IMG/VR virus record: IMGVR_UViG_3300027740_000026
Location: 1 to 60,450 of that record
Reading direction: 5' to 3' (one strand)
From: a virus
Lineage: Duplodnaviria > Caudoviricetes
Length of the DNA: 60,450 nt
Shown: one piece after another, positions 2,194-58,053 of the stretch
Layout: the number at the start of each line of letters is the position of its first letter
How positions within the stretch are numbered: position 1 is the stretch's first letter
Notes under the pieces: model-generated
Database searches by the model: none
What the model saw: only the letters and a program-made list of their open reading frames with translations
What the model was told of the DNA's origin: nothing
Made by a program: the position numbers and the translations under genes

Positions 2194-2284
2194 AGATAAC
2201 AAGCGGGTCAACTCGACCGCGTGAAGATTCCGATTTTGAATCTGGTAATTCAGTGGCGCGGTCGAGTTACCCTAGTCGTTATTT
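2194..2284 (+). other. attC site A4
   Basis: AGATAAC-aagc-GGGT[C]AACTCGACCGCG...CGCGGTCGAGTTACCC-tagtc-GTTATTT; R'' complements R' of A3. Confidence 0.92.
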
Positions 2285-2981: not shown

Positions 2982-3221
2982 TCATTTGATATTCCTGATA
3001 GCGACGAAAATAGTTTCGGCAATTTCTTTGACTTGAGAATCTGACAACAATGGAAGAATGTCGTTATCAGACCTGACGTCAATTATTTCCAACCTGATTC
3101 CGTCGTCTGCATTTACAGATGCCGGAATTTTTTCTCTCCTGCCTATGTAATCCACGTCAATGAGAACACCCTGTAATTCTATTTTCATGATTCTCCTTAG
3201 CCAGCCAGTGCCTGAAGCCAC
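2982..3221 (-). CDS. Hypothetical protein
   Basis: ORF in leftward operon; true start probably MKIELQ after AAGGAG. Confidence 0.55.
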   Translation of the reverse strand: MASGTGWLRRIMKIELQGVLIDVDYIGRREKIPASVNADDGIRLEIIDVRSDNDILPLLSDSQVKEIAETIFVAIRNIK

Positions 3222-3377
3222 ATGATGACAGCTGCGTAAAACATTGCTGCCAGAAATAGACCAGAAAAAACCTCTTTTATCATTTCAACACCCTGTCCAG
3301 GAGTTCCAAAACCTCCCGAAATTCGTTGAAACTTTGGATGGCCCTATCTCTTGCTGAAACAATGGCCAATTCACGGG

Positions 3378-3695
3378 TCAACCCTCCACAAGTTTGTCTC
3401 TCAACGCCTCATTTGCCACTTCAACAATCCTGGCGATCACGTCACCTGGATCAAACCACTCAGTTCCGACAGGATCGCCGTCCTCGGAAAAATGCTCATA
3501 ATAATACGATCCGTCAGAGCAACCCGGCTGGAGCGCAACTATTTTCTCCAGGGCCTCCCTGTATTTATTAATTATTTCAGTATTTTTGAAGCTCAAAAAT
3601 GCTCCGCACAGGTCAACACAATGGCAGCTATGCTTTTTACACCCGCTCTCGGATGTGTCGCTGTGGGGGCAGGTTTTATTCCAGCATACTTCCAT
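3378..3695 (-). CDS. Hypothetical Cys-rich protein
   Basis: ORF directly downstream of the exonuclease; AGGAG RBS. Confidence 0.6.
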   Translation of the reverse strand: MEVCWNKTCPHSDTSESGCKKHSCHCVDLCGAFLSFKNTEIINKYREALEKIVALQPGCSDGSYYYEHFSEDGDPVGTEWFDPGDVIARIVEVANEALRDKLVEG

Positions 3696-8641: not shown

Positions 8642-8734
8642 CCATAACAATCGGTTCAACGCAGATGGCGGGATCTGCTGTTGAGTTTTAAATTTTCTTC
8701 GGTGGCCCGCCACTGGTTAACCGAAGCGTTAGGA
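8642..8734 (+). other. attC site A6
   Basis: CCATAAC-aat-CGGTT[C]AAC[G]CAG...CTGGTTAACCG-aagc-GTTAGGA; two extrahelical bases. Confidence 0.92.
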
Positions 8735-9191: not shown

Positions 9192-9278
9192 TCCTAACAA
9201 TAAAATTAACCTGACGGGGTTGATCCGTCCGTTTTTTGCGGGTAGTTCTCGGCCCGCAGGTTATTTAAAGCGTTATGC
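9192..9278 (+). other. attC site A7
   Basis: TCCTAAC...AAAT[T]AACCTG...CAGGTTATTT-aaagc-GTTATGC; CCTCCTAAC complements GTTAGGAGG of A6. Confidence 0.9.
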
Positions 9279-9687: not shown

Positions 9688-9954
9688 ATGGATAAGAAAT
9701 TAAAATCTATCTTTGATAACCACACGTTAGGACCAACAACTAAATTGGTCTATATTTATTTAGTACAAATGGCAAACAAAGACGGTGAGTGCTGGCCAAA
9801 TTACGAGCATATCATGGCTGCGTGTGGAATTACGAGTAAGGCCACTGTATCTAAATCACTTAAAGAGCTGACTTCCGCAGGGGAAATTGTGGTATTCAGA
9901 AAATCAAACGGTTTTAGGCATTCAAACAGGTATGGAATATTGCCGTGTCGATAG
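9688..9954 (+). CDS. Winged-HTH replication initiator-like protein
   Basis: KLVYIYL...ANKDGECWPNYEHI...CGI.SKATVSKSLKEL...G...SNRY; adjacent to iterons. Confidence 0.8.
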   Translation: MDKKLKSIFDNHTLGPTTKLVYIYLVQMANKDGECWPNYEHIMAACGITSKATVSKSLKELTSAGEIVVFRKSNGFRHSNRYGILPCR

Positions 9955-10063
9955 TTCATTTTTTGAACCTTCGATAGTTCATTTTTTGAACTATCGAAGG
10001 TTCATTTTTTGAACCTTCGATAGTTCATTTTTTGTGCGATTGGATAGTTCATTTTTTGAACCG
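9948..10063. repeat. Putative replication origin: five ~23-bp iterons
   Basis: TCGATAGTTCATTTTTTGAACCT-like units at 9948, 9971, 9994, 10017, 10041 with a GTTCA/TGAAC dyad (degenerate in copy 4); followed by AT-rich TATATAAAGACCT repeats. Confidence 0.85.
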
Positions 10064-10132: not shown

Positions 10133-11680
10133 GTGAAACAATTTCGGATCGAGCATACAATTTTATCATCTGGCCCTGGATTCAATTTGAGGGACTACCA
10201 GAAAAGGGCCGTTGCCGAAATACGTTCTTCTTTGGCTGCTGGATCTCGGCGTGTTGTGATGGTAATGCCTACGGGCTCGGGCAAGAGCGCGACTTTTGCC
10301 GAAATAACCAAGCTGGCCCTGGCGAAAGGCAAGCGTGTTCTGTTCCTGGTTCACAGGAGAAATTTGGTTGATCAGACCCGGCAGGCGTTTGCCTATCATG
10401 GCGTGACAGAGACAGGCATAATCATGTCAGGCTATGAAACTGCACTGAATGAGCCTGTCCAGTTGGCGACCTACCAAACCTACGGGCGGCGGATCAAGTT
10501 GGAAGACGGCGAAACGGCGTTTAATTTCCCAGCCGACCTGATTTTAGTCGATGAAGTCCATAGGGGCGTGTCTCAGGGATACGTGGACATTTTCAGCCAT
10601 TATCCAGAAGCCGTTATTGTCGGATGCACAGCAACTCCGACGAGAGCAGACGGTCGGGGTCTGGGTGAAGTGTTTGACTCATTGGTTGATGTCGTTGACA
10701 CACAATCGCTGACTGACAACGGATATCTCGCCCCATGCCGTTATTTTGCCCCAAGTGTTCCCAATCTTGATCAGATTAAAATAGTCAGGGGTGATTACGA
10801 CGTTAAAGAGTTGGATAAACGGATGAACCAGGCCAAGCTTGTTGGCGATGTGGTGCAAAACTGGTTGCGGCTGGCAGCAGATAGGAAAACTATAGTGTTT
10901 GCCGTGTCTGTCGCCCATTCAAAAGCCCTTGCCGCTGAATTTAACAGACACGGCATATCGGCATATCATCTGTCCGCCAAAAGTACCGACGAGCAACGGG
11001 ACTACGCATTCAGAGAGATGGAGCGTGGAAATATCCAGGTGATTTGCAACTGCGCTTTGTATCAGGAGGGCATGGATGTGCCTGACATATCCTGTGTTGT
11101 GATGGCAAGGCCGACAAAAAGCCTGGGGCTCTGGCGCCAATGTGGCGGACGAGGTTTGAGACCAGCACCAGGAAAGGACCTGATGTTATTGGATCATGGC
11201 GGTTGCATCGAGGAAAACGGGTTACTGACTGACCCTGTGGAATGGAGTTTGGACGGGAAAAAGAAGGCATGGAGAAAAGCAAAAAAAAGGAAACCGGCGG
11301 AGAAAAAAGACCTCATTTGTTCGGCCTGCTCCCTGATTTTCTCCGGGTCCGCGAAATGCCCTGACTGCGGCAATGAAGCAAAAAGTTTTGGGAAAAAAGT
11401 TGAGGTAATTGACGCGGATCTGTCCGAAATTGGCGGCAAAAAAAAGGCCACAATGGAAGAAAAGCTCAAATTTTACGGGATGTTGCGTCATTATGCGAAA
11501 TTGAAGGGGTATAAAGACGGATGGTGTTATCACAAATACAAAGAGCGGTTCGGGGTGGCTCCGAAAAACGGTATCAGCCCGCCATGTATCCAACCTGATC
11601 ATGCGTTTTACTCGTGGATGAAACATTTGACGATAAAATACCTGAAAAGTAAGGAGCGTCATGCCGAGAATCGAATTTGA
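10133..11680 (+). CDS. SF2 (DEAD-like) DNA helicase with C-terminal Zn ribbon
   Basis: LRDYQ, PTGSGKS, DEVH, TATP, EGMDVP, QCGGRGLR, CSAC..CPDC. Confidence 0.95.
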   Translation: MKQFRIEHTILSSGPGFNLRDYQKRAVAEIRSSLAAGSRRVVMVMPTGSGKSATFAEITKLALAKGKRVLFLVHRRNLVDQTRQAFAYHGVTETGIIMSGYETALNEPVQLATYQTYGRRIKLEDGETAFNFPADLILVDEVHRGVSQGYVDIFSHYPEAVIVGCTATPTRADGRGLGEVFDSLVDVVDTQSLTDNGYLAPCRYFAPSVPNLDQIKIVRGDYDVKELDKRMNQAKLVGDVVQNWLRLAADRKTIVFAVSVAHSKALAAEFNRHGISAYHLSAKSTDEQRDYAFREMERGNIQVICNCALYQEGMDVPDISCVVMARPTKSLGLWRQCGGRGLRPAPGKDLMLLDHGGCIEENGLLTDPVEWSLDGKKKAWRKAKKRKPAEKKDLICSACSLIFSGSAKCPDCGNEAKSFGKKVEVIDADLSEIGGKKKATMEEKLKFYGMLRHYAKLKGYKDGWCYHKYKERFGVAPKNGISPPCIQPDHAFYSWMKHLTIKYLKSKERHAENRI

Positions 11681-12590
11681 AAAAATCAAGGACGAGGCTC
11701 GGGGCCGCTGGCGTGGAATTTTCGCGCATCTCGGGATCGAAGTTGGCGACGGCAGACATACAATATGCCCGATATGTCAGAAGGCCTCTAAATTTCGCTG
11801 TGACGATAAAACAGGGGCTGGGGAATGGATCTGTACCTGTGGGGCTGGAGACGGCTTAAAATTGATTATGGAGGCCTTAAACGTCGATTTTGTGACTGCC
11901 GTCGAAATGATCATCCCGATAGTCGGGATAGTCGAGCCCACCGAGCGGGAGGAGAAAAAAACATTTTCGGCGGAACAGGCCCGGAAAATATTTGTGGGCG
12001 CGGTTAGGGCGTCACATCAAAATGCGGCGGGCCAATACCTACGCAATAGAGGCCTGAGGGCGTGTCCGGAAACGCTCTGGTATCACGAAAAAATGTGGAA
12101 CGTCCATTCAAAAACTCATTTGCCGGCAATGGTCGCATGCGTGACAAATAAATCCGGGCAGGTGACAAATCTACACCAGACATTTTTGACGCCGGATGGC
12201 CAAAAAGCCGGGATCGAAAAACCAAAAATCTTGACGATGAATTTTGACAAAACTGACCCAACTGGTCGGGCAATCAGACTGTTCCCCCCGGAACATGAGT
12301 GCGTTGGGATCGCTGAGGGGATTGAGACAGCCCTGGCGTGTTATGAGATGCACGGTATACCAACCTGGGCGGCTGTGTCAGCGTCATGGATGATCGGCTG
12401 GGAGCCCCCGGAAGGGATACCGTTGCGGAAAGTGTATATTTTTGGGGACCGGGACAACAGTTTTACCGGGCAGGCGGCAGCGTATCAATTGGCGCACAAG
12501 CTCAAGGTCCGGCGCAAAATTGATGTTGAGGTCCAACTGCCACCAGAGGGTGATTGGCTGGATGAGCATGTCAAGAGGACTGAAAAATAA
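11661..12590 (+). CDS. Primase (Zn-binding plus Toprim domain)
   Basis: HTICPIC..FRCDD...WICTCGAGDG; IAEGIETAL; IFGDRD; DWLD. Confidence 0.9.
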   Translation: MPRIEFEKIKDEARGRWRGIFAHLGIEVGDGRHTICPICQKASKFRCDDKTGAGEWICTCGAGDGLKLIMEALNVDFVTAVEMIIPIVGIVEPTEREEKKTFSAEQARKIFVGAVRASHQNAAGQYLRNRGLRACPETLWYHEKMWNVHSKTHLPAMVACVTNKSGQVTNLHQTFLTPDGQKAGIEKPKILTMNFDKTDPTGRAIRLFPPEHECVGIAEGIETALACYEMHGIPTWAAVSASWMIGWEPPEGIPLRKVYIFGDRDNSFTGQAAAYQLAHKLKVRRKIDVEVQLPPEGDWLDEHVKRTEK

Positions 12591-12601
12591 AGGAGGTGGA
12601 A

Positions 12602-12904
12602 ATGAGAATAGGCATGGAAATCAACATAAACGTTGATAAAATCGATAAGTCCAGGATTTTTAAAGGGAAAAAAGGGTCGTATTTAAACCTCACGGTTTTT
12701 GTCGATACCGAAAAAAAAGGTGAGTATGGGGACAATGGCACTGTATCTCAATCTGCAAGCAAAGATGACCGGGCTGCCAAAAAAAAGATGCCGATAATCG
12801 GCAATGCGAAAGTTTTTTTTATCGTTGAGTCTGCGGGAGAGGCGCAAAAAAGCGATGAACCTCCCGTGCCCGAACCCACAATGGGCGACGAAGTCCCTTT
12901 CTAA
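12602..12904 (+). CDS. Putative ssDNA-binding protein
   Basis: Follows the primase; acidic C-terminal DEVPF tail. Confidence 0.55.
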   Translation: MRIGMEININVDKIDKSRIFKGKKGSYLNLTVFVDTEKKGEYGDNGTVSQSASKDDRAAKKKMPIIGNAKVFFIVESAGEAQKSDEPPVPEPTMGDEVPF

Positions 12905-12931
12905 AAAAAACACAGCGTGTGAAAAAAACTG

Positions 12932-12960
12932 TTGACATCATATCTAGTCGGGTGTAAGAT
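12932..12960 (+). promoter_or_regulatory. Sigma70-type promoter
   Basis: TTGACA-17-TAAGAT with A-rich upstream element. Confidence 0.75.
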
Positions 12961-12993
12961 GAGTCATACTCAAAATTAACGGAGGGGGAAAAA

Positions 12994-13254
12994 ATGGCAA
13001 ATCATAAAACAGTAAACGAAATTATCGGCACAACCAGACAGCGGGTACCTCGGATTAATCTCCGAGGGGTTGCGGTGCCTCGCGGTACTGCGACTGTTTC
13101 AACCCCGATTGGCCCCGTAACCTGTGAGCTGGTTTCGTGCGGGCATCGGGGAGGGTGTCTTAAAGCCCCCCACGCGATGGCGCTGTTTTTTGTCGGCGGG
13201 GAGCGGGTAACAAAGACAGAGCTGGCAAAAATGCTTGTAAACAAAGCGGGATAA
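12994..13254 (+). CDS. Hypothetical early protein
   Basis: GGAGG RBS downstream of the promoter. Confidence 0.65.
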   Translation: MANHKTVNEIIGTTRQRVPRINLRGVAVPRGTATVSTPIGPVTCELVSCGHRGGCLKAPHAMALFFVGGERVTKTELAKMLVNKAG

Positions 13255-13391
13255 TCCCGCCGCAAATCAAAGCCAATGACCAAGCCTGCCAAACGGATTA
13301 AGTCTGTTGGCAGGCTGACTTGATTGATTAGTCAATTTATGAGAGTTGAGAGTTAAGTTTATACTAATTAATTTAAAAGGAGATTACGATT

Positions 13392-13757
13392 ATGAAAACA
13401 ACGTACCAATTGGGAGTAGCAACGATAATTTTGGAAGGGATCGGACAAGAAGACCCATGTGACGGAAATTTGGTTGTGGTTAAGGCCACAATCTGCCTTC
13501 CCTCAAAAAAGGGGTATCTGGCCGAGGAGCTGCATTTTGGTTCCCGCCTCATTCTCGCGAGGGAACAGCTCACGGGAAGCTGGGGAAGGGACATTGGGAA
13601 CAGAAATTACAGGGGAAAGTGGATAAGCTTTACTGGAAAAACCTGGAAGGAAGCTAAGTACGAAGCAGCAGAATGGGCAAGGGAAGAAGTAGGAAAACTT
13701 ACTTCTGCCCTGGCGGAAAGAGAAGCGGCACTGAAAGCCGCTGGGAACTGGGAGTGA
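13392..13757 (+). CDS. Hypothetical early protein
   Basis: AAGGAG RBS; 121 aa. Confidence 0.7.
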   Translation: MKTTYQLGVATIILEGIGQEDPCDGNLVVVKATICLPSKKGYLAEELHFGSRLILAREQLTGSWGRDIGNRNYRGKWISFTGKTWKEAKYEAAEWAREEVGKLTSALAEREAALKAAGNWE

Positions 13758-13945
13758 TCCCGACCACGAAATTAACCCCTGAGCTGGCCCGGCAGCTCTT
13801 GATCGGCGGAGACCTGGACCGGGAAGAGATCGCAAAACTCAGGGGGCGGATCGAAGACCTGCTGAGAAAGAACCCGGCTGTGCTCTACCGCATTGCCGGG
13901 GAACTGGCAGCAGACGGTCAGATCAGGATTGACGATCTGATTTAA
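13754..13945 (+). CDS. Hypothetical protein
   Basis: GTGA start/stop overlap with the previous gene. Confidence 0.6.
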   Translation: MIPTTKLTPELARQLLIGGDLDREEIAKLRGRIEDLLRKNPAVLYRIAGELAADGQIRIDDLI

Positions 13946-13966
13946 GAAAAAAAGGAGGAAACGGCA

Positions 13967-14284
13967 ATGGGAGAAATGATAGACAGTGCTATGCGTTTGC
14001 GCTCAGCGGATTTTGTAGTCCGCTGGGAACAAGAATGGGATGTCTGCGCTGTGCAGGCATGGATGCAACCGAAGCAGATGAGCTATGTCGGTAATGTGCA
14101 ATGTACCGATCACGCAGTTTACATGGAGGGTCCCGCTGTAGAAAGGATTTTGTCTGAGTTCCCAAGTGCTATCCCCCGGCGTGGCTGGGGCGGCGCGTAC
14201 TGCCCTGGGATTGTTGACAAAACAACCGGACGGTGGATGTCGGGTTTTGGTTTGACCCAGAGCCGGGCAATCGGGGATATCTGA
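13967..14284 (+). CDS. Hypothetical protein
   Basis: AGGAGG RBS. Confidence 0.6.
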   Translation: MGEMIDSAMRLRSADFVVRWEQEWDVCAVQAWMQPKQMSYVGNVQCTDHAVYMEGPAVERILSEFPSAIPRRGWGGAYCPGIVDKTTGRWMSGFGLTQSRAIGDI

Positions 14285-14365
14285 TCTGAGCCGCCAAGAG
14301 TCAAGTTTGCTCATAAAGAGCACGGCATAAGCCCGAAAGTCAACCTGGATTGATATGAAGCGAGC

Positions 14366-14455
14366 AGACTACGACCAGGGTGAGCTGACCGGGCCACTCA
14401 AACTACAATAAAAAAACAGGCGGTTCCCCGGTTCTGCTCTACCCGCTTGTTATGC
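14366..14455 (-). other. Degenerate attC site B1
   Basis: Minus strand GCATAAC-aagc-GGGT[A]GAGC...GCTCACCC-tggtc-GTAGTCT (R' has lost a T). Confidence 0.7.
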
Positions 14456-14498
14456 GGCGGTTGCCGGTAAAATTATTTTCCAACCCCTTTTATTTTGC

Positions 14499-14527
14499 TT
14501 GCAATTCCGAACAATGTACGGTAAGGT
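14499..14527 (+). promoter_or_regulatory. Cassette promoter with palindromic operator
   Basis: TTGCAA-17-TAAGGT; CCGAACAATGTACGG in the spacer. Confidence 0.7.
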
Positions 14528-14600
14528 GTATTTAACAAAGGCGGCAGTTAACCGCCGTCGGACTTGGCCGAACCAAGGAATGAGTATCTGGAGAAATGAC

Positions 14601-14801
14601 ATGAAAATCGGTGATCGATTTGACGGTCAAACCAGAGACGGTGGGATTGAAAACCCGACCTCCCAGCCGATGGTATTTACCACATACCAGGGCTGGGAGG
14701 CGGGGGACCAGGAGCTAACGCTCCCTCCCCACAGCGCAACCAAACTGGTGAGTAGTGGATCACCGGCTTGTTGCGCACGTCTCGAAGTCGTAGCTCTGTA
14801 A
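14601..14801 (+). CDS. Small unknown protein (candidate anti-defence, cassette cargo)
   Basis: GGAG RBS; lies between promoter and HTH gene. Confidence 0.65.
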   Translation: MKIGDRFDGQTRDGGIENPTSQPMVFTTYQGWEAGDQELTLPPHSATKLVSSGSPACCARLEVVAL

Positions 14802-14916
14802 AGAGTCACGACTTCGGCCACTGAATAAGATTCGGGGCGATACCTGGCCTGGCAACAGAACGAAGGTTTTAAAAGTTATTTTTATAGCAGCGCCTGACCC
14901 GACTAGAGGGGATTAC

Positions 14917-15120
14917 ATGACCAACAAGGAGTTTCAGGCCCAGCAATCACGGCTGGGCCTCACGAATGAACAGACAGCCGCCATTCTCCGCGTGTCGATC
15001 AGGACTGTGGAGAAATGGCGGCAGGGAGTGCGGGGCGAGATACCAGGGCCGGTGGTCGTGGTTTTTTCCCTGCTTGAGCATTACCGCAGTGCAATTTCAT
15101 GGCTGCGGGGTGACACATAA
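14917..15120 (+). CDS. XRE HTH autoregulator (Aca-like)
   Basis: LGLTNEQTAAILRVSIRTVEKWRQG..IPGPV; paralogue of 15571-15774; TAA inside attC B2. Confidence 0.85.
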   Translation: MTNKEFQAQQSRLGLTNEQTAAILRVSIRTVEKWRQGVRGEIPGPVVVVFSLLEHYRSAISWLRGDT

Positions 15121-15176
15121 CGACCAGCATCACCGGACCGCTGCTTTTGCGGTTCCGCGTGCATGCGAGGTTATGT
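15115..15176 (-). other. attC site B2
   Basis: Minus strand ACATAAC-ctcg-CAT[G]CAC[G]CGG...CCGGTGATG-ctggtc-GTTATGT. Confidence 0.85.
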
Positions 15177-15218
15177 GGCGGGTGCCGATAAATTATTTTT
15201 CAACCCCATTTTATTTGC

Positions 15219-15248
15219 TTGACACAACCGTACATTGTGCGGTATAAA
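15219..15248 (+). promoter_or_regulatory. Cassette promoter with palindromic operator
   Basis: TTGACA-18-TATAAA; CCGTACATTGTGCGG matches the inverted operator at 14507 at 14/15. Confidence 0.75.
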
Positions 15249-15313
15249 GAATGAAAGAGCGGCAATCACGCCGCCCACAAACAGCCGGTTTTATCCGGCG
15301 AAAGGAGAACGAC

Positions 15314-15574
15314 ATGAGTACAGATAAAAGATTTTTTGACGTAGCGTCCAGCATGGCCGCGAGAAGAATTTCCTCCCTCTTCACGAGGGGGGAGCTGGTC
15401 ACATCCCATGATGGGATGGTGGACCAGTACCGGGGAAACACCCCGGTGAGGTCTTTTGGTGACCTCGGTCAAATTTTCCCGGTATTTCACCGGGAAGCAT
15501 ACCGGGAACTCCGAATACGGGCCGGAGTTCCCGCCAGTAAAGCCACGTGGGAGTGGCACCAGGTGGTAAAATGA
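15314..15574 (+). CDS. Small unknown protein (candidate anti-defence, cassette cargo)
   Basis: AAGGAG RBS; ATGA-coupled to the HTH gene. Confidence 0.7.
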   Translation: MSTDKRFFDVASSMAARRISSLFTRGELVTSHDGMVDQYRGNTPVRSFGDLGQIFPVFHREAYRELRIRAGVPASKATWEWHQVVK

Positions 15575-15774
15575 CACCGGACGAGTTCAAGGCCAAGCAA
15601 GCCGCGCTTGGCCTGACCAACTTCGACGCCGCCACAGTCCTCCGTGTTTCCGTGCGGACGGTGGAGAAATGGCGGCAGGGCACAAGAGCAGTGCCGGGGC
15701 CAGTGGTAGTGATTTTCTTCCTGCTGGCCAAATATAAAGGGGCGATCCGGTACCTACTGGATCGAGACACATAA
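15571..15774 (+). CDS. XRE HTH autoregulator (Aca-like)
   Basis: LGLTNFDAATVLRVSVRTVEKWRQG..VPGPV; TAA inside attC B3. Confidence 0.85.
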   Translation: MTPDEFKAKQAALGLTNFDAATVLRVSVRTVEKWRQGTRAVPGPVVVIFFLLAKYKGAIRYLLDRDT

Positions 15775-15833
15775 CGCTCCGGCTCACTGGTGCCGCGCAG
15801 TTTGCGGCTTCCGCGTGTAGCCGGTTGTTACCC
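15769..15833 (-). other. attC site B3
   Basis: Minus strand GGGTAAC-aa-CCGGCT[A]CAC[G]CGG...CCAGTGAGCCGG-agc-GTTATGT. Confidence 0.9.
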
Positions 15834-15889
15834 TGGCTAGCCACAAAACCAGGGCAACAAAAAATAATTAATTAATATCATTTTTTCTA

Positions 15890-15917
15890 TTGACTCCCTC
15901 TGATATTGTGGTATTAT
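15890..15917 (+). promoter_or_regulatory. Cassette promoter
   Basis: TTGACT-16-TATTAT with extended TG. Confidence 0.65.
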
Positions 15918-15967
15918 TAAATCAAAGGGAGGGCAATAAAGCACTCTCACAAAACAGGGAGCAAAAC

Positions 15968-16159
15968 ATGAAAACTTACAAAGAAATGTACGAAGAAGCT
16001 GCTGCTAAAACAAACTTTGTATACAAAGGGTATACAAAAGGCAACGCCCTTTCTCTGTACGTTGACGAAAAATACGGGGTGAATGCGGCGGCGGACAATG
16101 CCGCTCATGACGCTCTTTGTGAAGTTGTATCAACAATGAGTTTTGACGATGAAGAGTAA
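15968..16159 (+). CDS. Small protein with acidic tail (candidate anti-defence, cassette cargo)
   Basis: GGGAG RBS; 63 aa ending FDDEE. Confidence 0.7.
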   Translation: MKTYKEMYEEAAAKTNFVYKGYTKGNALSLYVDEKYGVNAAADNAAHDALCEVVSTMSFDDEE

Positions 16160-16340
16160 GAAAGGCGGCAATAGACCAGGGGCCGGGAGACCGGCCCTAA
16201 AACCCGACGAAAAGCCGAAAGATATTTCCCTTCGCTTGCCCCGCGATCTGGTCGAAAAGCTGGACGCGATGGAAGGAAGCCGGGCAAAGCTGATAATTGC
16301 AGCCTGTCGAGCCTACTACAAGATTCGCCCGGCAGGGTAA
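16149..16340 (+). CDS. Ribbon-helix-helix DNA-binding protein
   Basis: GGNRPGAGRP + ISLRLPRDLVEKLD...SRAKLI; TAA inside attC B4. Confidence 0.8.
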   Translation: MKSKKGGNRPGAGRPALKPDEKPKDISLRLPRDLVEKLDAMEGSRAKLIIAACRAYYKIRPAG

Positions 16341-16424
16341 CATTCAGCATAATCAGCGGCGGTCTGTGAACCCCGTTAAAATCACCGCGCGTCCCCGCCG
16401 TCTGCGTTGATGCGCTTGTTAGCA
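16335..16424 (-). other. attC site B4
   Basis: Minus strand TGCTAAC-aagc-GCAT[C]AAC[G]CAG...CTGATTATGC-tgaat-GTTACCC; CAGGGTAAC complements GTTACCCTG of B3. Confidence 0.9.
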
Positions 16425-16448
16425 AGCAAAACCACGGAGGGAATATCC

Positions 16449-16973
16449 ATGGAATTTTTATACCTGGCCGCAATTGATGTGGCTAAGAGAGCGCACAAAG
16501 ACCAGCGGCGGAAGTACACCAACGAGCCGTACATTGTCCACTCATTCGCCGTGGCTGGACTGGTTGCCTCAGTGACGGAAGATGATGACATGGTTATTGC
16601 TGCCATCCTGCATGATGTCGTTGAGGATAGTCCGATAGAGCTGAAAACCATCCGTGGCATATTCGGGGTTAGGATAGCCCAAATGGTTGACGACCTTACG
16701 GACGTTTCCAGGCCAACTGATGGTAACAGGGCCAAAAGGAAAGAGCTTGATTTTGAGCACACGGCCAAAGCCAGCCCGGAAGCGAAAACGGTTAAGTTAG
16801 CTGACTTGATTGACAACACCAAGAGCATTTGGGCTTTTGATAAGAACTTTGCACGTAAGTACATGCACGAAAAAAGGCGATTACTCGAAGTGCTGCAAGA
16901 AGGGGACACCTTTCTTTACGCCTTGGCGCACGAGATGACTCAAAAATACTTTGAAACAGGTGAAATATGCTGA
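16449..16973 (+). CDS. HD-domain (p)ppGpp-hydrolase-like protein (small alarmone hydrolase/Mesh1 type)
   Basis: AH..QRRK....PYIVH, AAILHDVVED, VKLADLIDN. Confidence 0.9.
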   Translation: MEFLYLAAIDVAKRAHKDQRRKYTNEPYIVHSFAVAGLVASVTEDDDMVIAAILHDVVEDSPIELKTIRGIFGVRIAQMVDDLTDVSRPTDGNRAKRKELDFEHTAKASPEAKTVKLADLIDNTKSIWAFDKNFARKYMHEKRRLLEVLQEGDTFLYALAHEMTQKYFETGEIC

Positions 16974-17008
16974 TTGTAAAAATGCTGTTCGGTAGTCACC
17001 TGATGTGA
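16967..17008 (+). pseudogene. Orphaned original N-terminus of the nucleotidyltransferase
   Basis: MLIVKMLFGSHLM*; shares TGTTCGGTAGTCACCTG with 17643-17659. Confidence 0.75.
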
Positions 17009-17051
17009 TCCGTTGTTGACTTTTCCACCAGATTCATGTACTCATTTAAGA

Positions 17052-17630
17052 ATGAAACATAATGATAAATGGAGTTGGAACTGGTCGAAAGAACACGTTG
17101 GCATGAAAATAGGACGGCTTACGTTAATAGAGCCTCTACCTGAACGTCCTGAAAATCGTTGGAGATGTATATGCCAGTGTGGGAAAGATATCGTTGCTCG
17201 GTGGTCAGCATTGAAACGCGGAATAACTAAATCCTGCGGTTGTTTAAAGAGCGAAACTACAGTGCAAAAAAACAAGCGCGGATTTAAGGGGAGAGGGGAG
17301 TTGTCGGGGACTTACTTTAGTCAGATTCGGTACCAGGCTAAAAAAAGAAATCTTGAGTTTAGCATTACTGTTGATGATCTGTGGGACTTATTCTTGGCGC
17401 AAAAAGGAAAATGTGCAATTTCCGGCATGGACATTTTCTTAACACCAGGGACTAAGAGAGGTCACCCCACAAGTGCAAGTTTAGATAGGATCAATTCAAC
17501 TAAAGGGTACGCATTAAATAATGTCCAGTGGGTTCATAAGCATATCAATATTATGAAAAACTCTCAATCAATGGAGGAATTTCTTTATATATGCAAAAAG
17601 ATTGCTGCGTTTCAAGCAAAGAAAACATAA
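17052..17630 (+). CDS. Free-standing HNH homing endonuclease
   Basis: WRCICQCG...KSCGC N-terminus; CAISG...SLDRINSTKGY..NVQWVHKHINIMK. Confidence 0.88.
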   Translation: MKHNDKWSWNWSKEHVGMKIGRLTLIEPLPERPENRWRCICQCGKDIVARWSALKRGITKSCGCLKSETTVQKNKRGFKGRGELSGTYFSQIRYQAKKRNLEFSITVDDLWDLFLAQKGKCAISGMDIFLTPGTKRGHPTSASLDRINSTKGYALNNVQWVHKHINIMKNSQSMEEFLYICKKIAAFQAKKT

Positions 17631-18601
17631 TCATGCGTTGTGTGTTCGGTAGTCACCTGTACGGCACATCTACCCCCGCCAGCGACAAAGACTTTAAAGG
17701 GGTGTCCCTGCCAACATGGGAGCAGGTGGCGCTTGGAAGAATACCAAAGCACGCTGAGAATACCTCAACGGGGCAAGCGCACAGCAAGAACACCGCGCAA
17801 GATGTGGACACGGAAATTTTCGGATTGCATGAGTTTGTGAAACTCGCCTGTGAAGGGCAAACCGTGGCGATGGACATGCTACACGCCCCCGCCGATATGC
17901 TTATTTCTGTAACCCCGTTATGGGCCGAAATCCAGAAGCACAAGGCCAAGTTTTACAGCAAAAATATTCACTCGTTTATCGGGTACGCCATGGGCCAAGC
18001 CGCTAAATACGGGGTGAAGGGTAGCAGACTGAATGATGCAAAGGCCGTTTTAAGTTGGCTTGAAAGTCAACCAGAATCCGCGAAATTGGCAGATTGCGAC
18101 CTTGGCACATTCCCGGCGGGGGAACATATTAGGCTGATTGAGTCTGACGACCCGCTGAAACAAAACCAATACGATGTCTGTGGCAAAAAGATACAGCTTA
18201 CCAGTCGGGTGCAATATGCGTATAACATTGTGTCGCATTTTTATAAGAACTACGGCGAAAGAGCAAGGCAAGCAGCCTGTGACGAAGGGGTTGATTGGAA
18301 GGCAATAAGCCACGCATTTAGAGCCGCTTACCAAATGCGAGAACTTTTTGTCTCTGGGACGATAACTTTCCCACGCCCAGAAGCGAAACTGCTGACAGAT
18401 ATAAAAACTGGCAACATGAAATACCGTGATGCGGCCCCAATGCTGGAAGACATTATTGACGAAGTAAAGGGGCTGAAAGATCGGTGTGAGTTCCCTGAAC
18501 AGCCGGATAGGAACTTTTGGGATTCTTTCATTTTGCGCATTGTAGAGGAGGTCATTGTTCCGAATCTTCGCAAGGCTGATAGCGGAATTTCTGCTTGCTA
18601 A
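17591..18601 (+). CDS. Pol-beta superfamily nucleotidyltransferase (phage type)
   Basis: FGSHLYGTSTPASDKDFKGV (GS..DxD); DWKAISHAFR; ITFPRP; start may be 17633; TAA inside attC B5. Confidence 0.88.
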   Translation: MQKDCCVSSKENIIMRCVFGSHLYGTSTPASDKDFKGVSLPTWEQVALGRIPKHAENTSTGQAHSKNTAQDVDTEIFGLHEFVKLACEGQTVAMDMLHAPADMLISVTPLWAEIQKHKAKFYSKNIHSFIGYAMGQAAKYGVKGSRLNDAKAVLSWLESQPESAKLADCDLGTFPAGEHIRLIESDDPLKQNQYDVCGKKIQLTSRVQYAYNIVSHFYKNYGERARQAACDEGVDWKAISHAFRAAYQMRELFVSGTITFPRPEAKLLTDIKTGNMKYRDAAPMLEDIIDEVKGLKDRCEFPEQPDRNFWDSFILRIVEEVIVPNLRKADSGISAC

Positions 18602-18685
18602 CGCCAATGGTAACCAGCGGCGGCCACGGAGCTTGACGACGAGCAACGCTGCTCCCCGCCGTCTGCGTTTACCCGCTTGTTAGTC
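18596..18685 (-). other. attC site B5
   Basis: Minus strand GACTAAC-aagcg-GGT[A]AAC[G]CAG...CTGGTTACC-attggc-GTTAGCA; TGCTTGCTAAC complements GTTAGCAAGCA of B4. Confidence 0.9.
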
Positions 18686-18695
18686 TGCCCGACCG

Positions 18696-18730
18696 CCGAC
18701 AACTCAGAGATGGGTTGATCGGCCTTTTTT
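18696..18730 (+). terminator. Rho-independent terminator closing the cassette array
   Basis: GCCGACAACTC/GGGTTGATCGGC hairpin plus T6. Confidence 0.65.
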
Positions 18731-18779
18731 ATTTGTATTTTGCTGTAAAATGTTATAATATTTTAAAAAAGGTCAAAAA

Positions 18780-18893
18780 ATGGACGAATATAGCGGCACA
18801 ACATTCATTTTATTTTATATTTTGGCCGTCCTGCTGGCGGTTTTATTCCTAATTTATTTTGCAGATCCGGCTGAGGCGATTGCCCTGGTGTGA
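18780..18893 (+). CDS. 37-aa membrane peptide
   Basis: MDEYSGTTFILFYILAVLLAVLFLIYFADPAEAIALV downstream of TGnTATAAT; GTGA overlap with next gene. Confidence 0.5.
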   Translation: MDEYSGTTFILFYILAVLLAVLFLIYFADPAEAIALV

Positions 18894-19141
18894 GTCGGGA
18901 TGCAGAGGTGCAAAAATATCTCGGTGATATTCTGCAGTTTCAAAATTTCCGGGGAGATCCGGTCCTGATTGCAATCAAAAAATGTCTGACGGATGAGGAA
19001 CGGTATATCTATTTTGCTCATTATCTCGATTGCAGGACGCAGGGAGACATAGGCAGAGAGTACGGAGTATCAGCGAGCAGCATCAGTCAAAAAATTGCCG
19101 GGATGAATCGGCGGATTTCGAGAGAGGTACGGAGAAAGTGA
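18890..19141 (+). CDS. Sigma70 region-4-like HTH protein (possible late regulator)
   Basis: LTDEERYIY...YL...TQGDIGREYGVSASSISQ. Confidence 0.7.
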   Translation: MSRDAEVQKYLGDILQFQNFRGDPVLIAIKKCLTDEERYIYFAHYLDCRTQGDIGREYGVSASSISQKIAGMNRRISREVRRK

Positions 19142-19401
19142 GCTACACCCCTGCAGACAGAGTTACGTTGGAAAAAGTGTGGAACTGGTGCGAAAAGAAT
19201 GAGTCGGACGCTCTGGCAGAAGCATATTTTGAGGTATGTACGACAGTTGGGGCGTTAGATCCTCAGGTTTTGTGCCACAGGGCGGCAAAACCATATTGGG
19301 CGAAGGCCTATGCTATTAAAAGGGCCGCGATAAAAACGAGAGATTTGATCGGAGAGCTTATTTTGCGTGAGATCAAAATAGAGTCGAAGCAGGGGGCCTG
19401 A
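19138..19401 (+). CDS. Hypothetical protein
   Basis: GTGA overlap; directly precedes terS. Confidence 0.55.
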   Translation: MSYTPADRVTLEKVWNWCEKNESDALAEAYFEVCTTVGALDPQVLCHRAAKPYWAKAYAIKRAAIKTRDLIGELILREIKIESKQGA

Positions 19402-40468: not shown

Positions 40469-43400
40469 ATGCTCGAAGAATTTGTCGAATTATATCAAGA
40501 TCCCGGTTTTAACTCCCTCTCTCAGCAAGACAAAGAGAAAGTGTTCCGTGGATACTTTGAGGATAATGTTGATCGTGAGTTTTTCAGCCTGCCACCAGAA
40601 CAACAGGAAATAGCCAGGACAAACTTTGTCAGGGAGCAAACACTTCCTGAACCAGAGCCGACCGTTCTTGGCGAGGCCGGAAAAGCTGCCAGTGCTATTG
40701 TCCCGAAGTGGCTTGGAACTTTGGGTTCTGGAGTCGAGGCTTTTGGCGAGGGTGTAAGCAAGGCCGGGGCTGAAGACATTGGAGGGAAAATATCCGACAT
40801 CGGAGCTGGGTCAAAAAAATATTGGGGCCAGAAGGTAGAAGGTCTTGCAGCTCATCCAGACATTCAAGGGGCAATTCTTGACAAACCATCCCTCGCCGTT
40901 GACCCGAAGTGGTGGGCATACAACACCATTGATATGGCAGGAAGTCTGATTCCGACCATTGCCGGTTATGCCATTGGCGGGAAACCTCTTTCCGGTGCGG
41001 TAGGCGGTTCCATGGAAGCTTCGCAAACATGGGATGACATGCGGAAAGCCGGGGTATCTCCAGAAAAAGCAGGCGCCGCAGCCTTGGCGGTTGGAGTTGG
41101 AACAGGTATCCTGAACGCTCTTGGCGTTGATAAAATGCTTACGAAAAGAGCCGGTGCTGGTTTCGCAAGCAAGGTGAAGAATTTTCTTATTTCCGGGACA
41201 TGGGAAGGCGGGACAGAATGGGCGGAAGAACCATTTGTCGCCGTTGTTGAGGGTATAACACAAGGGAAGCCGTGGCAGGAAATAGCCCAAGACGTAAAAA
41301 AGAGAACGAAAGAGGGGTTCAACGTCTTTCCTCCTTCCATGCTTCTTGGCGGTATTGGAGGGTCATCAACTAGACCAACCGAGAAGCCTAAAACAGCGGA
41401 AACAGGAGAAAAAACACAGGAAGCAAGCCGTGTTCAGCAGCCGGTGACTTCTGAAAAAATACTGTCTTCTCTCAAAGAATCTCTTTCTGAAGGGCAGATA
41501 TCACCAGATGAAGTCCGAGCCAACATCAATGAGTTCGCGGAACAAGGTGTGACTCCTGAACAGGTCGAAGCTGTTATCCGAAGTTTCAAGCCAGAACAAC
41601 CAATCCAGCAAAGAGCCGACGAGACGACACCTGCGGCCAGAAGGGCAACGGAATCTCAGTTCAAGGCACAGCAGGAACTAAAAGAGCAGCCCGGTTGGAT
41701 GCAAACCGACAAGCCAGCCAGAGACGATTCTGATTTTCTCCAACAGATGCAGAAATCGAGGGAGTATGCCAAGGCTAAAAATCAGCCCGGCGCATCGTTA
41801 AGGTTTGAGGGTGAATTTGATCCCAATCAGGTTGTATCCGGAGAAGATGGCCTGCCGCTATTATTTAAAAACCCTATCTTGGCAATTCGATATGCGCAAA
41901 AGAACGCACCAGGAGCGAAGTGGCTGAAAACAGACAATGGTGTTGTGCTTATCGGTGGGAAAAAACCGGAACAAAAATCAGTGGAAGCCACGCAACACGG
42001 GAAAATCAGACAGCAAGAGCTTCGTGACGTTGTAGACGCTGACCCGTTAAATGCGGTTGCAAGGGAAATTCAAAAAGAGGGCGGGATCAGGCTTACCGAT
42101 GATATTAAAAATACTTATAGCGCCGATACCAGGAACCAACTCAACAAGCGTTATCCCGGCCTGTTCAGCAACAACGGGAAAATTTACGGAGATGAAGCAG
42201 CGGAGAAAGCAGGCTTTGAGTCGCTTGACTCTTTCGTGGAAGCACTGAAAACCTCCAAAACAAAAAGTGAAATCGGCAAACTGGCAAGAGAACCAGATTT
42301 AAGCCATATAGACGATATTGTAAAAGCAGGGCTTGAGCCAACAGTTGACGCTTTAGGGCGCCCGGCAAAAATGAGGGCTATCGACCTTGCTCTTGGCGAT
42401 GAGGTGCAGGCCAGCGGCGATGATGTCCCGGCAGACAGATACACAGTTAAAGGGATTGACAAGGCTGGTCGCGTCGTTCTGGAAGATGGCGTTGAAGTCC
42501 GGGTTGACGCCGACACAGAACTTGACGTAGAAGGGCGCAAGCGATCTGGCAAAGATTTTGACGAAAACAACCTGCTTCCTTTGAGAAAAGGAGAGGAAGC
42601 TGAAGACCCATTTTCTTATGAACAAGGCAACATAGAACCGAATGAGAAAGAAATTACCGGTAGTGGTAGAGAAGCGGAAGGGGCGGTGGATGGTAAAAGT
42701 GTTGTGGGCGCAGTTGGAGAGAGGCCCGTTCAAAAACCTGAGCGAAGCCGTGCTGTGCGGGCTGACGATGCTCCCGGAAAGGGTGTTCAAGGCGTAGAGC
42801 CATGGCAAAACAGCGATCTTGCCACCAGTCCGAACATTTCTCCATCCAGAGTGACGGCAAAGAAACAGGCGGACGGGAAATACGGCATGGTGTTTATTGG
42901 CACCGGCAATGAGGTGTTTCCTGGTGAGCGGTTTTCTTCAGTGAAAGAAGCTCGGGATTTCTTTAAGGTTCAGCAAGCAAAAGCACAGGCCGCTACTCTC
43001 TCCGCACAGGGCGCGAGTACAGAGAGTGGCCTGACTCCACAAGGAGCTATCAAGGCCAAGCCGAGCCCGACGGGCGAATCGGCTACTTATAACCCTTTCA
43101 GAAATAAGGCTGAAAAGGCACGGAAGAAATATGAGTCAATGAGCGGGAGGACTGTGCGCGACGATGCAATGGAAAAATCGTTTCCATTAGGCGCAGGGTT
43201 TGGGCGAGGGACGCAGCGTAGCCGAGACAAAGCCATTGATTCCAGCGTTGCCCGTGCAACCCGTATAGTTGAAGCCAGGCGGGAAATGGACCAGCTTGAA
43301 GCCCAGGCCGACGCATACGACCGAGGGGAAATCACGGCGCAGGGACGAAGAACAAAAAGCGAGAAGCTTGTGGTTGCCGAGAAAGAACTTCGCAGGCGAG

Positions 43401-57682: not shown

Positions 57683-57855
57683 ACCCAACAAGCGGGTAGA
57701 GAGGGACGCGGGGAAACGTCCGATTTCCAAGCGGGGTTCATTGGCCCGCGCTCGCCCCCTCCGGGGGCTTGCCTCCCCCGAGGGCTCACTGCGCGGTTTT
57801 AGGGTTATAATTCTACTCCAAGCAAGGCGGCAACCGGTGATGCTGGTCGTTATAT
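57683..57855 (+). other. Chimeric/degenerate attC site C1
   Basis: Left arm ACCCAAC-aagc-GGGT[A]GAG (B1-type) and right arm CCGGTGATG-ctggtc-GTTATAT (B2-type) do not pair with each other. Confidence 0.65.
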
Positions 57856-58053
57856 TTTCACCCACCCTGGACAATCGGGCTTGGTGTATTTGTTGACACT
57901 GTTGCGCCTCGGCATATCTCCGCGATAGTCACCAAAGCAATGAGGCAGCGCCACCTCCGGGTAGTTGCACTTGGCAGATGATTCCAGTTTCCTTTTGCCG
58001 CTGGCCGTCCTCTGCCACTCCGAATAACCACAATTCACACAGTTTTTAACCAT
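57850..58053 (-). CDS. Small Cys-rich protein (cassette cargo)
   Basis: Bracketed by GTTATATTTT/AAAATATAAC; TAA inside R'. Confidence 0.7.
   Translation of the reverse strand: MVKNCVNCGYSEWQRTASGKRKLESSAKCNYPEVALPHCFGDYRGDMPRRNSVNKYTKPDCPGWVKI

Follow-up and report, generated by a model that had tools for sequence, protein, structure and literature searches.

What are the three short operons that lie in tandem at positions 14449 to 16341 of the virus record IMGVR_UViG_3300027740_000026 (Duplodnaviria; Caudoviricetes), and how could such units come to be passed between phages? The window, that is, the whole stretch of DNA analyzed, is the complete record of 60,450 bp (CheckV completeness, 100). 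Each of the three units consists of a promoter, a structured leader, a small open reading frame (ORF) unrelated to those of the other two, here called the cargo, and a terminal gene for a DNA-binding protein. An earlier annotation made from the letters alone (the sequence-only reading) had likened these units to operons in which anti-CRISPR genes are closed by an anti-CRISPR-associated regulator (acr-aca operons), and had proposed the three small ORFs as anti-CRISPR or anti-defense candidates mobilized as cassettes. We find that every unit is bounded by hairpins of the attC type, that the boxes at the two borders of a unit match each other, and that variant contigs break at these boxes. The reading that we favor, at slightly better than an even chance, is that the units are mobile cassettes of an integrase-less, integron-like array, each a complete self-limiting operon whose cargo likely serves anti-defense or host interference.

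Three units of like layout

The promoters and genes of the three cassettes are as follows (aa, amino acids; nt, nucleotides; pI, isoelectric point; HTH, helix-turn-helix; RHH, ribbon-helix-helix).

14499 to 14527, plus strand: promoter of cassette 1 (TTGCAA, 17-nt spacer, TAAGGT), with a 15-bp palindromic operator at 14507 to 14521
14601 to 14801, plus strand: cargo1, 66 aa, pI 4.75, no known family
14917 to 15120, plus strand: HTH1, candidate XRE-type repressor of 67 aa; the Thr and stop codons at its end are the 5' box ACATAAC of junction J1
15219 to 15248, plus strand: promoter of cassette 2 (TTGACA, 18-nt spacer, TATAAA), with an operator at 15228 to 15242
15314 to 15574, plus strand: cargo2, 86 aa, pI 10.1, of no known family or fold; its stop codon and the start of HTH2 overlap in ATGA
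15571 to 15774, plus strand: HTH2, 67 aa, paralogue of HTH1; ends in ACATAAC
15890 to 15931, plus strand: promoter of cassette 3 (TTGACT, 16-nt spacer, TATTAT)
15968 to 16159, plus strand: cargo3, 63 aa, pI 4.5
16149 to 16340, plus strand: RHH, 63-aa basic protein with a Gly/Arg-rich arm, probably of the ribbon-helix-helix type; ends in the box GGGTAAC

The six ORFs, and the order of promoter, hairpin, small ORF, and DNA-binding gene, are as the sequence-only reading had described them, with cargos of 66, 86, and 63 aa. HTH1 and HTH2 are identical at 39 of 63 positions (62%; expectation value, E, 2e-28), in agreement with their description as paralogous XRE-type genes. The blocks upstream of cassettes 1 and 2 had been called near-identical, which was too strong: identity is 85% over 53 nt (14449 to 14501 versus 15170 to 15221) and 68/92 over a longer block. 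Cargo and regulator genes overlap in cassettes 2 and 3, and in cassette 1 they are separated by a 115-bp noncoding gap (14802 to 14916). This gap resembles none of the loci that we fetched from other contigs and may be a remnant of cargo exchange.

Between the -35 and -10 elements of cassettes 1 and 2 lies a 15-bp palindrome, and the copy in cassette 1 is identical at 14 of 15 positions to the reverse complement of the copy in cassette 2. These two predicted operators (14507 to 14521 and 15228 to 15242) are the sole matches with at most two mismatches to the idealized palindrome in 60,450 nt; with up to three mismatches there are five matches versus 1.0 expected, a number that 0 of 100 shuffles reached. 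The inverted operator that had been proposed thus stands. In cassette 3, an 11-nt inverted repeat (15894 to 15904 and 15921 to 15931) brackets the -10 element and is a candidate operator for the RHH protein. As in acr-aca operons, then, a predicted inverted-repeat operator lies inside or overlaps the promoter. A strict sigma-70 scan passed the promoter of cassette 3 alone (10/12 with TG), and in this region it returned seven sites versus 7.0 in shuffles, which is no excess. The promoters of cassettes 1 and 2 were called from positional conservation in other phages; the promoter and operator layout of cassette 1 recurs in three of the fetched loci (L003, L004, and L008).

Hairpins of the attC type at the junctions

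Every unit is bounded by a hairpin made up of a …TAAC box that overlaps the stop codon, an imperfect stem, and a GTTA… box. Seven such sites, three from the window and four from other contigs, were aligned, and a covariance model (R1) was built on them. The sites in the window are the following.

14367 to 14455, plus strand: J0, before cassette 1; 3' box GTTATGC at 14449 to 14455, 5' box degenerate; R1 42.6 bits, E 2.8e-9, not in training
15115 to 15176, plus strand: J1, 62 nt, ACATAAC…GTTATGT; single-stranded DNA fold z -3.2; R1 22.4 bits, E 0.0022, not in training
15769 to 15833, plus strand: J2, ACATAAC…GTTACCC; single-stranded DNA fold z -3.3; R1 34 bits, E 9e-7, not in training
16335 to 16424, plus strand: J3, 90 nt, GGGTAAC…GTTAGCA
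18596 to 18685, plus strand: J4, 90 nt, TGCTAAC…GTTAGTC
1773 to 1861 and 2194 to 2284, minus strand: two sites, R1 46 and 69.9 bits, the one at 2194 to 2284 in training; co-oriented with minus-strand genes; boxes match exactly
8642 to 8734 and 9192 to 9278, minus strand: two sites, R1 57.5 and 43.5 bits, neither in training; boxes match exactly
57683 to 57774, minus strand: weaker site, R1 24.2 bits, E 6e-4, not in training

TAAC and GTTA were invariant in all seven aligned sites, and 86.8% of the cells paired versus 74.2% in shuffles (0/500). Both sides had changed in 7 of 19 pairs (4/500), there were 16 compensatory cells (0/500), and the covariation was 0.343 versus 0.100 (0/500); controls with slid partners paired at 34 to 54%. 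When R1 was run over 113,114 nt, it gave 39 matches at E ≤ 1, including seven window sites at E ≤ 0.0022 that had not been in training, and found five to eight sites in each of L003, L008, and L016. The 34 hits listed are 58 to 130 nt long, and sites run co-oriented with genes on both strands. The single-stranded folds of J3 and J4 do not stand out from shuffles (z, -0.2 and -1.1); their minimum-energy folds still pair both ends. The attC consensus RYYYAAC is matched only in part, e.g., by ACATAAC and GGGTAAC. Scans for attC sites by box pattern and folding energy erred in one of two ways, being too strict (12 candidates) or favoring long windows without specificity; the covariance model replaced them.

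Pieces of these hairpins were also seen. In L016, positions 2860 to 2900, compared with 15768 to 15850 of the window, keep the 5' box and first arm of J2 while about 60 nt of the hairpin are gone, and a 105-aa ORF with the identical Asp-Thr-stop ending precedes this remnant. Near the weak site at 57683 to 57774, positions 57834 to 57863 (minus strand) carry a 29- to 30-nt stretch of the J1 first arm (15108 to 15136), 90% identical.

Boxes match across units, and contigs break at them

The 34 hits form 25 consecutive pairs, each on one strand of one source. In 17 of these, reverse-complementing the 5' box of a site gives exactly the 3' box of the site before it, and at least six of seven positions agree in 21. 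Only once in 25 does the 5' box match perfectly the 3' box of its own hairpin. When box partners were permuted, 17 matches were reached 0 times in 10,000 (maximum, 8). In the window the boxes match exactly for cassette 2 (GTTATGT/ACATAAC), cassette 3 (GTTACCC/GGGTAAC), and the next unit of the array, which carries HD, HNH, and RlaP-family genes (GTTAGCA/TGCTAAC), and at 6/7 positions for cassette 1. There are four clear failures; three extend over 1.9, 6.4, and 48 kb and probably contain further sites that went undetected, and the fourth (L020) spans 1.2 kb.

A match of this kind, between the two borders of a unit rather than between the two ends of a hairpin, is the expectation for units excised and inserted by crossover inside the box, like integron cassettes. 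The claim of mobilization as cassettes is therefore supported, and much more literally than it had been made, as the units are bounded by attC-type sites with a crossover signature. The ends of the span given in the sequence-only reading, 14449 and 16341, coincide exactly with recombination-site boxes that were not recognized there.

It is also possible to see the junction hairpins as terminators or RNA-processing elements that were spread by homologous recombination. They follow stop codons directly and fold well, weak terminator activity has been proposed for attC sites as such (PMC9892861), and the phage encodes no recombinase. However, the complementarity of a box is with the far 5' border of the unit (17/25) and not with its hairpin partner (1/25), a result that 0 of 10,000 permutations gave, and the invariant TAAC/GTTA ends would go unexplained. 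No T-run follows the stems, a plus-strand terminator scan listed none of the junctions, and variant contigs break at the boxes. The box rule is why a pure terminator reading fails, and we consider this explanation highly improbable.

Natural breakpoints agree with exchange of units at the boxes. Assembled contigs from three DNA runs (two samples, two studies), one of which may be the source of the window, were compared with positions 13800 to 19200; as these are contigs and not reads, they give positions of divergence but no frequencies. Contigs with the RHH gene (13 to 21 differences) diverge from the window right after 16342, the end of GGGTAAC, in three runs of two studies. Further contigs depart from the window at either edge of TGCTAAC (18597 and 18602), at the 5' box of J0 (14371/14377), on the base just ahead of GTTATGT (15169), and at 14451. 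One break (15901) falls within the promoter of cassette 3, away from any box. A contig joint from 15897 to 16178, with 432 other letters between, was considered as a cargo replacement; its flanks are just 24 and 21 nt, and it was not counted.

What enzyme could act on these sites? No tyrosine or serine recombinase was found in the complete genome, where the Phage_integrase (PF00589) and Resolvase domains are absent (controls matched in 14/14 and 12/14 genomes), and no Phage_integrase domain was found in four related, incomplete viral records. The adjacency of IntI and attI that marks an integron is likewise absent from the window, which has no PF00589 match. Because the genome has no integron integrase, the array is at most of the kind known as CALINs, i.e., attC clusters without integrase, which have been described in phages (Qi et al. 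2023, PMC9892861); and because the phage encodes no recombinase, one would have to act in trans.

The array resembles those phage CALINs in its attC-like hairpins between co-oriented small genes in an integrase-less phage, in its GTTRRRY-type boxes, and in site lengths within 57 to 141 nt (PMC9892861). It is unlike them in that the sites stand on both strands in all accessory regions (10 at E ≤ 0.0022 and two weaker) and in that promoter, operator, and repressor come with each cassette. Orientation is a further difference. Extrahelical bases of attC sites lie on the AAC arm when the top strand is considered and on the opposite arm of the bottom strand, which is the one recombined; the top strand is also where the genes of cassettes are normally found (PMC5027507). 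In our predicted folds this polarity is not seen: the bulged bases (e.g., the T in CCGCCG-T-CTG) lie on the gene-sense 3' arm, opposite AAC. This would place the canonical bottom-strand geometry on the gene-sense strand, so that the genes run the other way. Because the bulges in these folds oppose AAC and the breakpoints cluster at the stop-codon-adjacent box, the sites suggest that genes run against canonical attC polarity.

Conserved regulators behind unrelated cargos

Scans of IMG/VR and JGI metagenome contigs yielded seven informative HTH cassettes, which carry six unrelated cargo families. These are cargo1 (66 aa), cargo2 (86 aa; L009-L011 hold a homologue of it at 62% identity), and proteins of 112 aa (L003/L007), 117 aa (L008), 206 aa (L004), and 51 aa (L012). 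Pairwise, cargos share 0 to 23 identical residues, save for the pair of cargo2 and its L009 homologue (53/86). Across the same cassettes, the HTHs agree at as many as 57 of 67 positions and the 120 nt upstream at up to 79%; HTHs identical at 53 to 57 of 67 positions stand behind unrelated cargos of 66, 112, and 117 aa. The operator lies between -35 and -10 in cassettes 1 and 2, L003, L004, and L008, with the half-sites CCGTAC/GTACGG. L012 has another recognition helix and, at the equivalent position, another perfect palindrome. These units share with acr-aca operons the small DNA-binding gene at the 3' end and a regulator found with diverse, exchangeable upstream genes. The acr-aca-like architecture is thus borne out, with an HTH related to Aca10, Aca2, and HigA-2 at the operon end, a palindrome in the promoter, and, elsewhere, conserved flanks around unrelated cargo.

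The HTH family is rare, with eight clusters among the 5.8 billion proteins searched. A profile search of 1.84 billion representatives gave, at E ≤ 0.001, 1,281 small HTH proteins that are more distantly related, 23 of them at E ≤ 1e-10. A broad profile of 61 sequences, run against solved structures, matched the antitoxin HigA-2 (E 5e-11), Aca10 (1.5e-9; structure 7xi5, PMC9410881), Aca2 (8e-7), Aca3 (8e-5), MqsA (8e-4), and Aca1 (5e-3). The Aca10 match has an E of 0.16 with a single sequence, 0.0076 with a narrow profile, and 1.5e-9 with the broad one, and HigA-2 scores better in all three. Because of the single-sequence and narrow-profile values, the HTH family is, by sequence, a separate family within Aca10's XRE subgroup and not Aca10 itself.

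Aca10 is a dimer of 65-aa, four-helix subunits in which R44 is critical for DNA binding, and its target is a 21-bp palindrome within a TTGCAA-N16-TATTCT promoter (PMC9410881). Its R44 aligns, in the narrow-profile alignment, with our Arg39, which is invariant in a 10-sequence family alignment. The HTH cassettes are thus like the Pseudomonas citronellolis acrIC7-acrIC6-aca10 operon in having a helical HTH of 65 to 67 aa at the 3' end, a palindromic operator inside a strong promoter with the -35 TTGCAA, and a conserved DNA-contacting arginine (Aca10 R44, R39 here) (PMC9410881), as well as a structured leader right after the predicted transcription start (PMC13551039). They are unlike it in that the kinship is distant, the palindrome is 15 bp and not 21 bp long, the cargo is not a known anti-CRISPR (Acr) protein, and the operons are packaged as attC-bounded cassettes.

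Two distant HTH relatives consist of whole HTH units in tandem, four in P0009 (283 aa) and three in P0012 (183 aa), and two others, P0018 (122 aa) and P0020 (131 aa), carry a 67- to 75-aa N-terminal extension and are either cargo-HTH fusions or gene-calling read-through. For the locus scan, the broad HTH alignment proved too diverse; a closer subset added one locus, L027, which like L005 holds a distant member. L006 and L014 are not members of the family. The sole return of a genome-contig scan with the HTH was a 24-residue HTH look-alike in a Streptomyces contig.

The third regulator had been called an RHH protein. A profile of four sequences matches the RHH antitoxin EndoAI (E 0.0049), which supports the assignment weakly; the match to Pfam RHH_1 (E 0.068) falls short of the cut-off. 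The gene product ends 7 residues past helix 2, with no C-terminal tail. Homologues sit behind a different 60-aa ORF in L009-L011, and in L020-L024 the RHH is fused to a 55-aa N-terminal domain and sits behind an 85-aa ORF. The fused proteins (L020, 573 to 926; L021, 2309 to 2662; L024, 2303 to 2662) are 117 to 119 aa long, with the RHH as C-terminal half and a conserved N-terminal domain of about 55 aa. Cassette 3 is comparable to operons of Aca14, which have an RHH as the terminal regulator and an inverted repeat that overlaps the -10 element (PMC13551039). This likeness is one of layout, and the RHH assignment itself is weak.

The relation to antitoxins raises the serious alternative that the units are type II toxin-antitoxin cassettes, with the upstream ORF as toxin and the HTH or RHH as antitoxin and autorepressor. 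They are two-gene units with their own promoter and with the larger gene first, as in higBA and mqsRA; HigA-2 is the best solved match of the HTH profile, MqsA scores as well, and 45 of 61 HTH family members have weak NCBIfam MqsA-family matches. The RHH profile matches EndoAI, cargo2 is basic and 86 aa long, and promoter-bearing toxin-antitoxin cassettes have been described in a phage-borne integron (PMC9892861).

The closest comparison of this kind is with integron cassettes of the higBA-2 type (HigA-2 structures 5jaa and 5j9i), which likewise have two genes, an autoregulated promoter of their own, and the partner gene first, and to whose HigA-2 C-terminal domain our HTH is related. The higBA-2 genes are located in the Vibrio cholerae superintegron. 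Here, however, the regulators have no toxin-neutralizing segment: profile positions 3 to 62 of the 67-aa HTH family align solely to residues 41 to 100 of the 103-aa HigA-2, and the RHH stops shortly after helix 2. The partners show no kinship to one another or, in our searches, to any known toxin; no toxin family was found among them, no significant fold match was obtained for cargo2 or cargo3, and five of the seven cargos are acidic. Nor do partners stay together, as nearly identical HTHs stand behind unrelated cargos, and cargo3 is kept at 92% identity beside a broken RHH gene and occurs with no regulator in L017/L018. Because of these bare DNA-binding regulators, the near-identical HTHs with unrelated cargo, and the survival of cargo3 beside a decayed RHH, a classical toxin-antitoxin reading is unlikely, and we judge the explanation as a whole quite improbable. 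The alternative that the sequence-only reading had left beside its own proposal is weakened.

Leader hairpins

A stem-loop starts a few bases past the -10 element in all cassettes, the RHH cassette and its L016 copy among them, and likewise in a regulator-less unit of L016. The 5' hairpins that had been noted in all three units are present, with the following properties.

14540 to 14577, plus strand: leader of cassette 1; hairpin 1 GGCGG/CCGCC, hairpin 2 CTTGG/CCAAG; fold z -0.5
15259 to 15299, plus strand: leader of cassette 2; hairpin 1 GCGGC, loop AATCAC, GCCGC; hairpin 2 GCCGG/CCGGC just 5' of the ribosome-binding site; fold z -3.0
15927 to 15948, plus strand: leader hairpin of cassette 3; GAGGGC, loop AATAAA, GCACTC; fold z -3.7; of the hairpin-1 type of the HTH cassettes

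Of the cells in seven hand-aligned copies of hairpin 1, 79.6% are paired, as against 67.4% for shuffles (0/500), and both sides have changed in four of seven pairs; sliding the 3' partner by 1 to 3 columns brought pairing to 31 to 57%. Hairpin 2 (GCCGG/CCGGC) has the identical sequence in five HTH cassettes (cassette 2, L003, L004, L008, and L009), and a different 5-bp stem replaces it in cassette 1. Because the leader hairpin is present in the L016 unit without a regulator, it is not regulator-specific. Covarying hairpins directly 3' of the predicted start are reported in Aca10 and Aca12 operons, without a demonstration of binding (PMC13551039). The idea that the leader hairpin is an RNA target of the HTH, as with Aca2, was set aside as the main reading: hairpin and operator have no half-site in common, and the hairpin occurs in the RHH cassette and the regulator-less unit. 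An IMG/VR DNA-pattern scan with hairpin 2 returned the L003 contig again and nothing else. Rfam gave a sub-threshold rteR match alone in 14300 to 16500 and none at gathering score in the whole window. In L016, the decayed RHH gene is followed, at 3370 to 3450, by a further unit of promoter and hairpin; its first transcribed bases are similar to those of cassette 1.

What the cargo proteins may do

The only homologue of cargo1, 59% identical, is in the viral contig L015, where a 65-aa XRE-type HTH lies about 370 bp downstream. cargo2 has four clusters including its own, and the cargo3 family has 32, all unnamed. Promoter, leader, and cargo of the cargo3 cassette are preserved at 92% identity in the 171-kb viral contig L016, where the RHH gene (3196 to 3330) has decayed through two 1-nt deletions, a deletion of 15 nt, and truncation at its 3' end. 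A pI below 5 is found for five of the seven cargos. Neither Pfam nor PHROGs gave a family match for cargo1, cargo2, or cargo3, PHROGs gave none for five foreign cargos, PADLOC gave 0 families for eight cargos and two regulators, and sequence searches of the PDB with the three cargos gave nothing below E 0.28.

AlphaFold2 models of cargo2, made from four sequences, had a pLDDT of 90 for the best and 46 to 71 for the other four, and show an alpha helix, three beta strands, and two alpha helices. cargo3 was modeled with a pLDDT of 91 for the best and at least 86 for all five, as three helices and a beta-hairpin. The best ESM Atlas values, 0.88 for cargo2 and 0.77 for cargo1, are within the range of shuffled proteins.

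By analogy, the cargo proteins are most likely inhibitors of host defense or other host-interference factors, because the early burst and shut-off that we propose, the conserved regulator, and the exchange of mostly acidic small cargo match Aca-regulated operons. Several Aca-regulated anti-defense operons can also stand side by side (PMC13551039), as the three cassettes do here. Because HTH1 found zero matches by tblastn in 50,697 cultured phage records and 72,556 plasmid records, guilt by association is confined to architecture.

Several observations weigh against our reading and are gathered here. The best-scoring solved relatives of both regulators are antitoxins, HigA-2 for the HTH and EndoAI for the RHH. 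The promoters of cassettes 1 and 2 fail the strict consensus scan, so that of the three sigma-70 promoters claimed in the sequence-only reading, one passed it. The HTH cassette of L009 has no canonical operator or clear promoter, the cassette 1 leader folds no better than shuffles, and the leader hairpin is found in a regulator-less unit as well. Both hairpin alignments, of leaders and of junctions, were hand-picked and hold seven sequences each. cargo2 is basic (pI 10.1). No cargo resembles a known Acr, anti-defense, toxin, or defense protein in the general libraries searched (Pfam, PHROGs, PDB, PADLOC, and folds), which include no dedicated Acr library. The fold searches gave no significant match for cargo2 (Foldseek best E, 0.63; VIA-align best Z, 5.0) or for cargo3 (Foldseek best, a winged-helix-like protein with a TM score of 0.58 and an E of 1.7), results on which no toxin, Acr, or other family can be excluded. 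The neighborhoods of HTH homologues, although rich in diverse exchangeable cargos, showed no known inhibitor beside an HTH. The proposal that the three ORFs are anti-CRISPR or anti-defense proteins hence has no direct support, whether by sequence or by fold.

The units could instead be mobile, autoregulated cassettes whose cargo has nothing to do with defense, serving host takeover, superinfection exclusion, or phage-phage competition, or being neutral baggage. Nothing ties any cargo to a defense system, the same promoter-plus-leader design precedes regulator-less genes in L016, and the neighboring unit carries the housekeeping-like HD, HNH, and RlaP enzymes. Moreover, fewer than half of the genes regulated by Aca1 or Aca2 have assigned functions (PMC13551039). 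Among characterized cases, tiny, fast-swapping, mostly acidic, autorepressed proteins beside Aca-like regulators are, however, mostly counter-defense proteins (PMC13551039); this is an analogy and no more, and we rate a non-defense cargo as rather unlikely.

Proposed working of the cassettes and its meaning

Under the reading that we favor, of mobile self-limiting cassettes with an anti-defense or host-interference cargo, the sigma-70 RNA polymerase of the host would fire the strong promoter upon entry, giving an immediate burst. The mRNA would open with the conserved stem-loop, which may be stabilizing or regulatory, followed by the cargo and then by the small repressor (HTH or RHH). A repressor dimer would then bind the palindrome between -35 and -10 and shut the operon off. 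Translation of cargo and repressor is probably coupled in cassettes 2 and 3, as their genes overlap, and HTH1 and HTH2 probably cross-repress, since their recognition helix and operator are nearly the same. The junction hairpins would delimit the units and may double as weak terminators, and units would be cut and joined inside the …TAAC/GTTA… box by a recombinase supplied in trans. Of all this, our analysis shows the anatomy of the units, a regulatory frame conserved around unrelated cargo, the covariation of the hairpins, the box rule, and the natural breakpoints, from which repression, cross-regulation, the recombinase, and the function of the cargo are inferred.

A more specific picture is possible, although we hold it as doubtful. 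The accessory regions of such phages would form an integrase-less, mirror-oriented cassette bank in which whole anti-defense operons circulate as single units, each comprising a recombination hairpin, promoter, operator, leader, inhibitor gene, and Aca-like repressor, with the box built into the last codons of the repressor (invariant Thr-stop, ACATAAC) and with a host integron integrase or another recombinase in trans moving them. Each cassette would bring its own promoter because reversed polarity would bar use of the integron Pc promoter.

Published work already covers CALINs in phages, autoregulation of the Aca type, RHH Acas, and regulated operons in tandem; one report (PMC13551039) describes an RHH Aca, Aca-regulated operons in tandem, and RNA motifs in the 5' leaders of Aca10 operons. 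Judging from titles and the beginnings of abstracts, we found no paper with the combination proposed here, namely, autoregulated Aca-like operons as integron-type cassettes, with the box in the last codons of the regulator and with reversed polarity, and no account of acr-aca operons as integron cassettes.

If this is true, Aca-regulated counter-defense operons travel as integron-type cassettes, which would join two separately studied fields and offer a concrete mechanism for the rapid shuffling of anti-defense genes among unrelated phages. This 60-kb phage and a 171-kb phage both carry the same cargo3 cassette. There would also be a homology-free search handle, in that a small gene between an attC-type box and an Aca-like repressor is a candidate. 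This handle yields nine candidate families: the six HTH cargos, two RHH cargos (cargo3 and the 60-aa ORF of L009), and the 85-aa ORF before the fused RHH. A further question is which enzyme recombines sites whose polarity is reversed with respect to the genes.

Genome setting

The phage has no close cultured relative. Megablast of 12000 to 19000 against cultured phages gave zero matches, and the best match of the terminase is that of Xylella phage Xfas53, at 54% identity. The window is best represented in a soil-metagenome run, which may be its source. Leftward early genes include one for an Erf-type annealing protein. Rightward, the order is helicase (10133 to 11680), primase (11661 to 12590), small unknown ORFs, the three cassettes, small terminase (19405), and large terminase (20009). 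The next unit of the array follows J3.

16425 to 18601, plus strand: HD_4 (SpoT-like HD) hydrolase at 16449 to 16973, HNH endonuclease at 17013 to 17630, and RlaP-family nucleotidyltransferase at 17591 to 18601

This unit of 2.26 kb is flanked by GTTAGCA and its exact complement TGCTAAC, with no internal site detected in 16425 to 18685. PHROGs gave no match for four of five neighboring ORFs of the window and, for the fifth (12596 to 12904), two weak matches to families of unknown function. A further near-consensus sigma-70 promoter (12932 to 12960; TTGACA-17-TAAGAT) lies 5' of an 86-aa ORF at 12994 to 13254. Just 5' of the helicase gene, positions 9903 to 10029 hold tandem direct and inverted repeats of about 20 nt (…CGATAGTTCATTTTTTGAAC…) that look like an iteron-type replication origin. 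Positions 40469 to 52366 hold a 3,965-aa ORF that Pfam matches to nothing but DUF5710 and, below threshold, a phage ProQ-C-like domain, and which may encode a giant virion or polyvalent protein.

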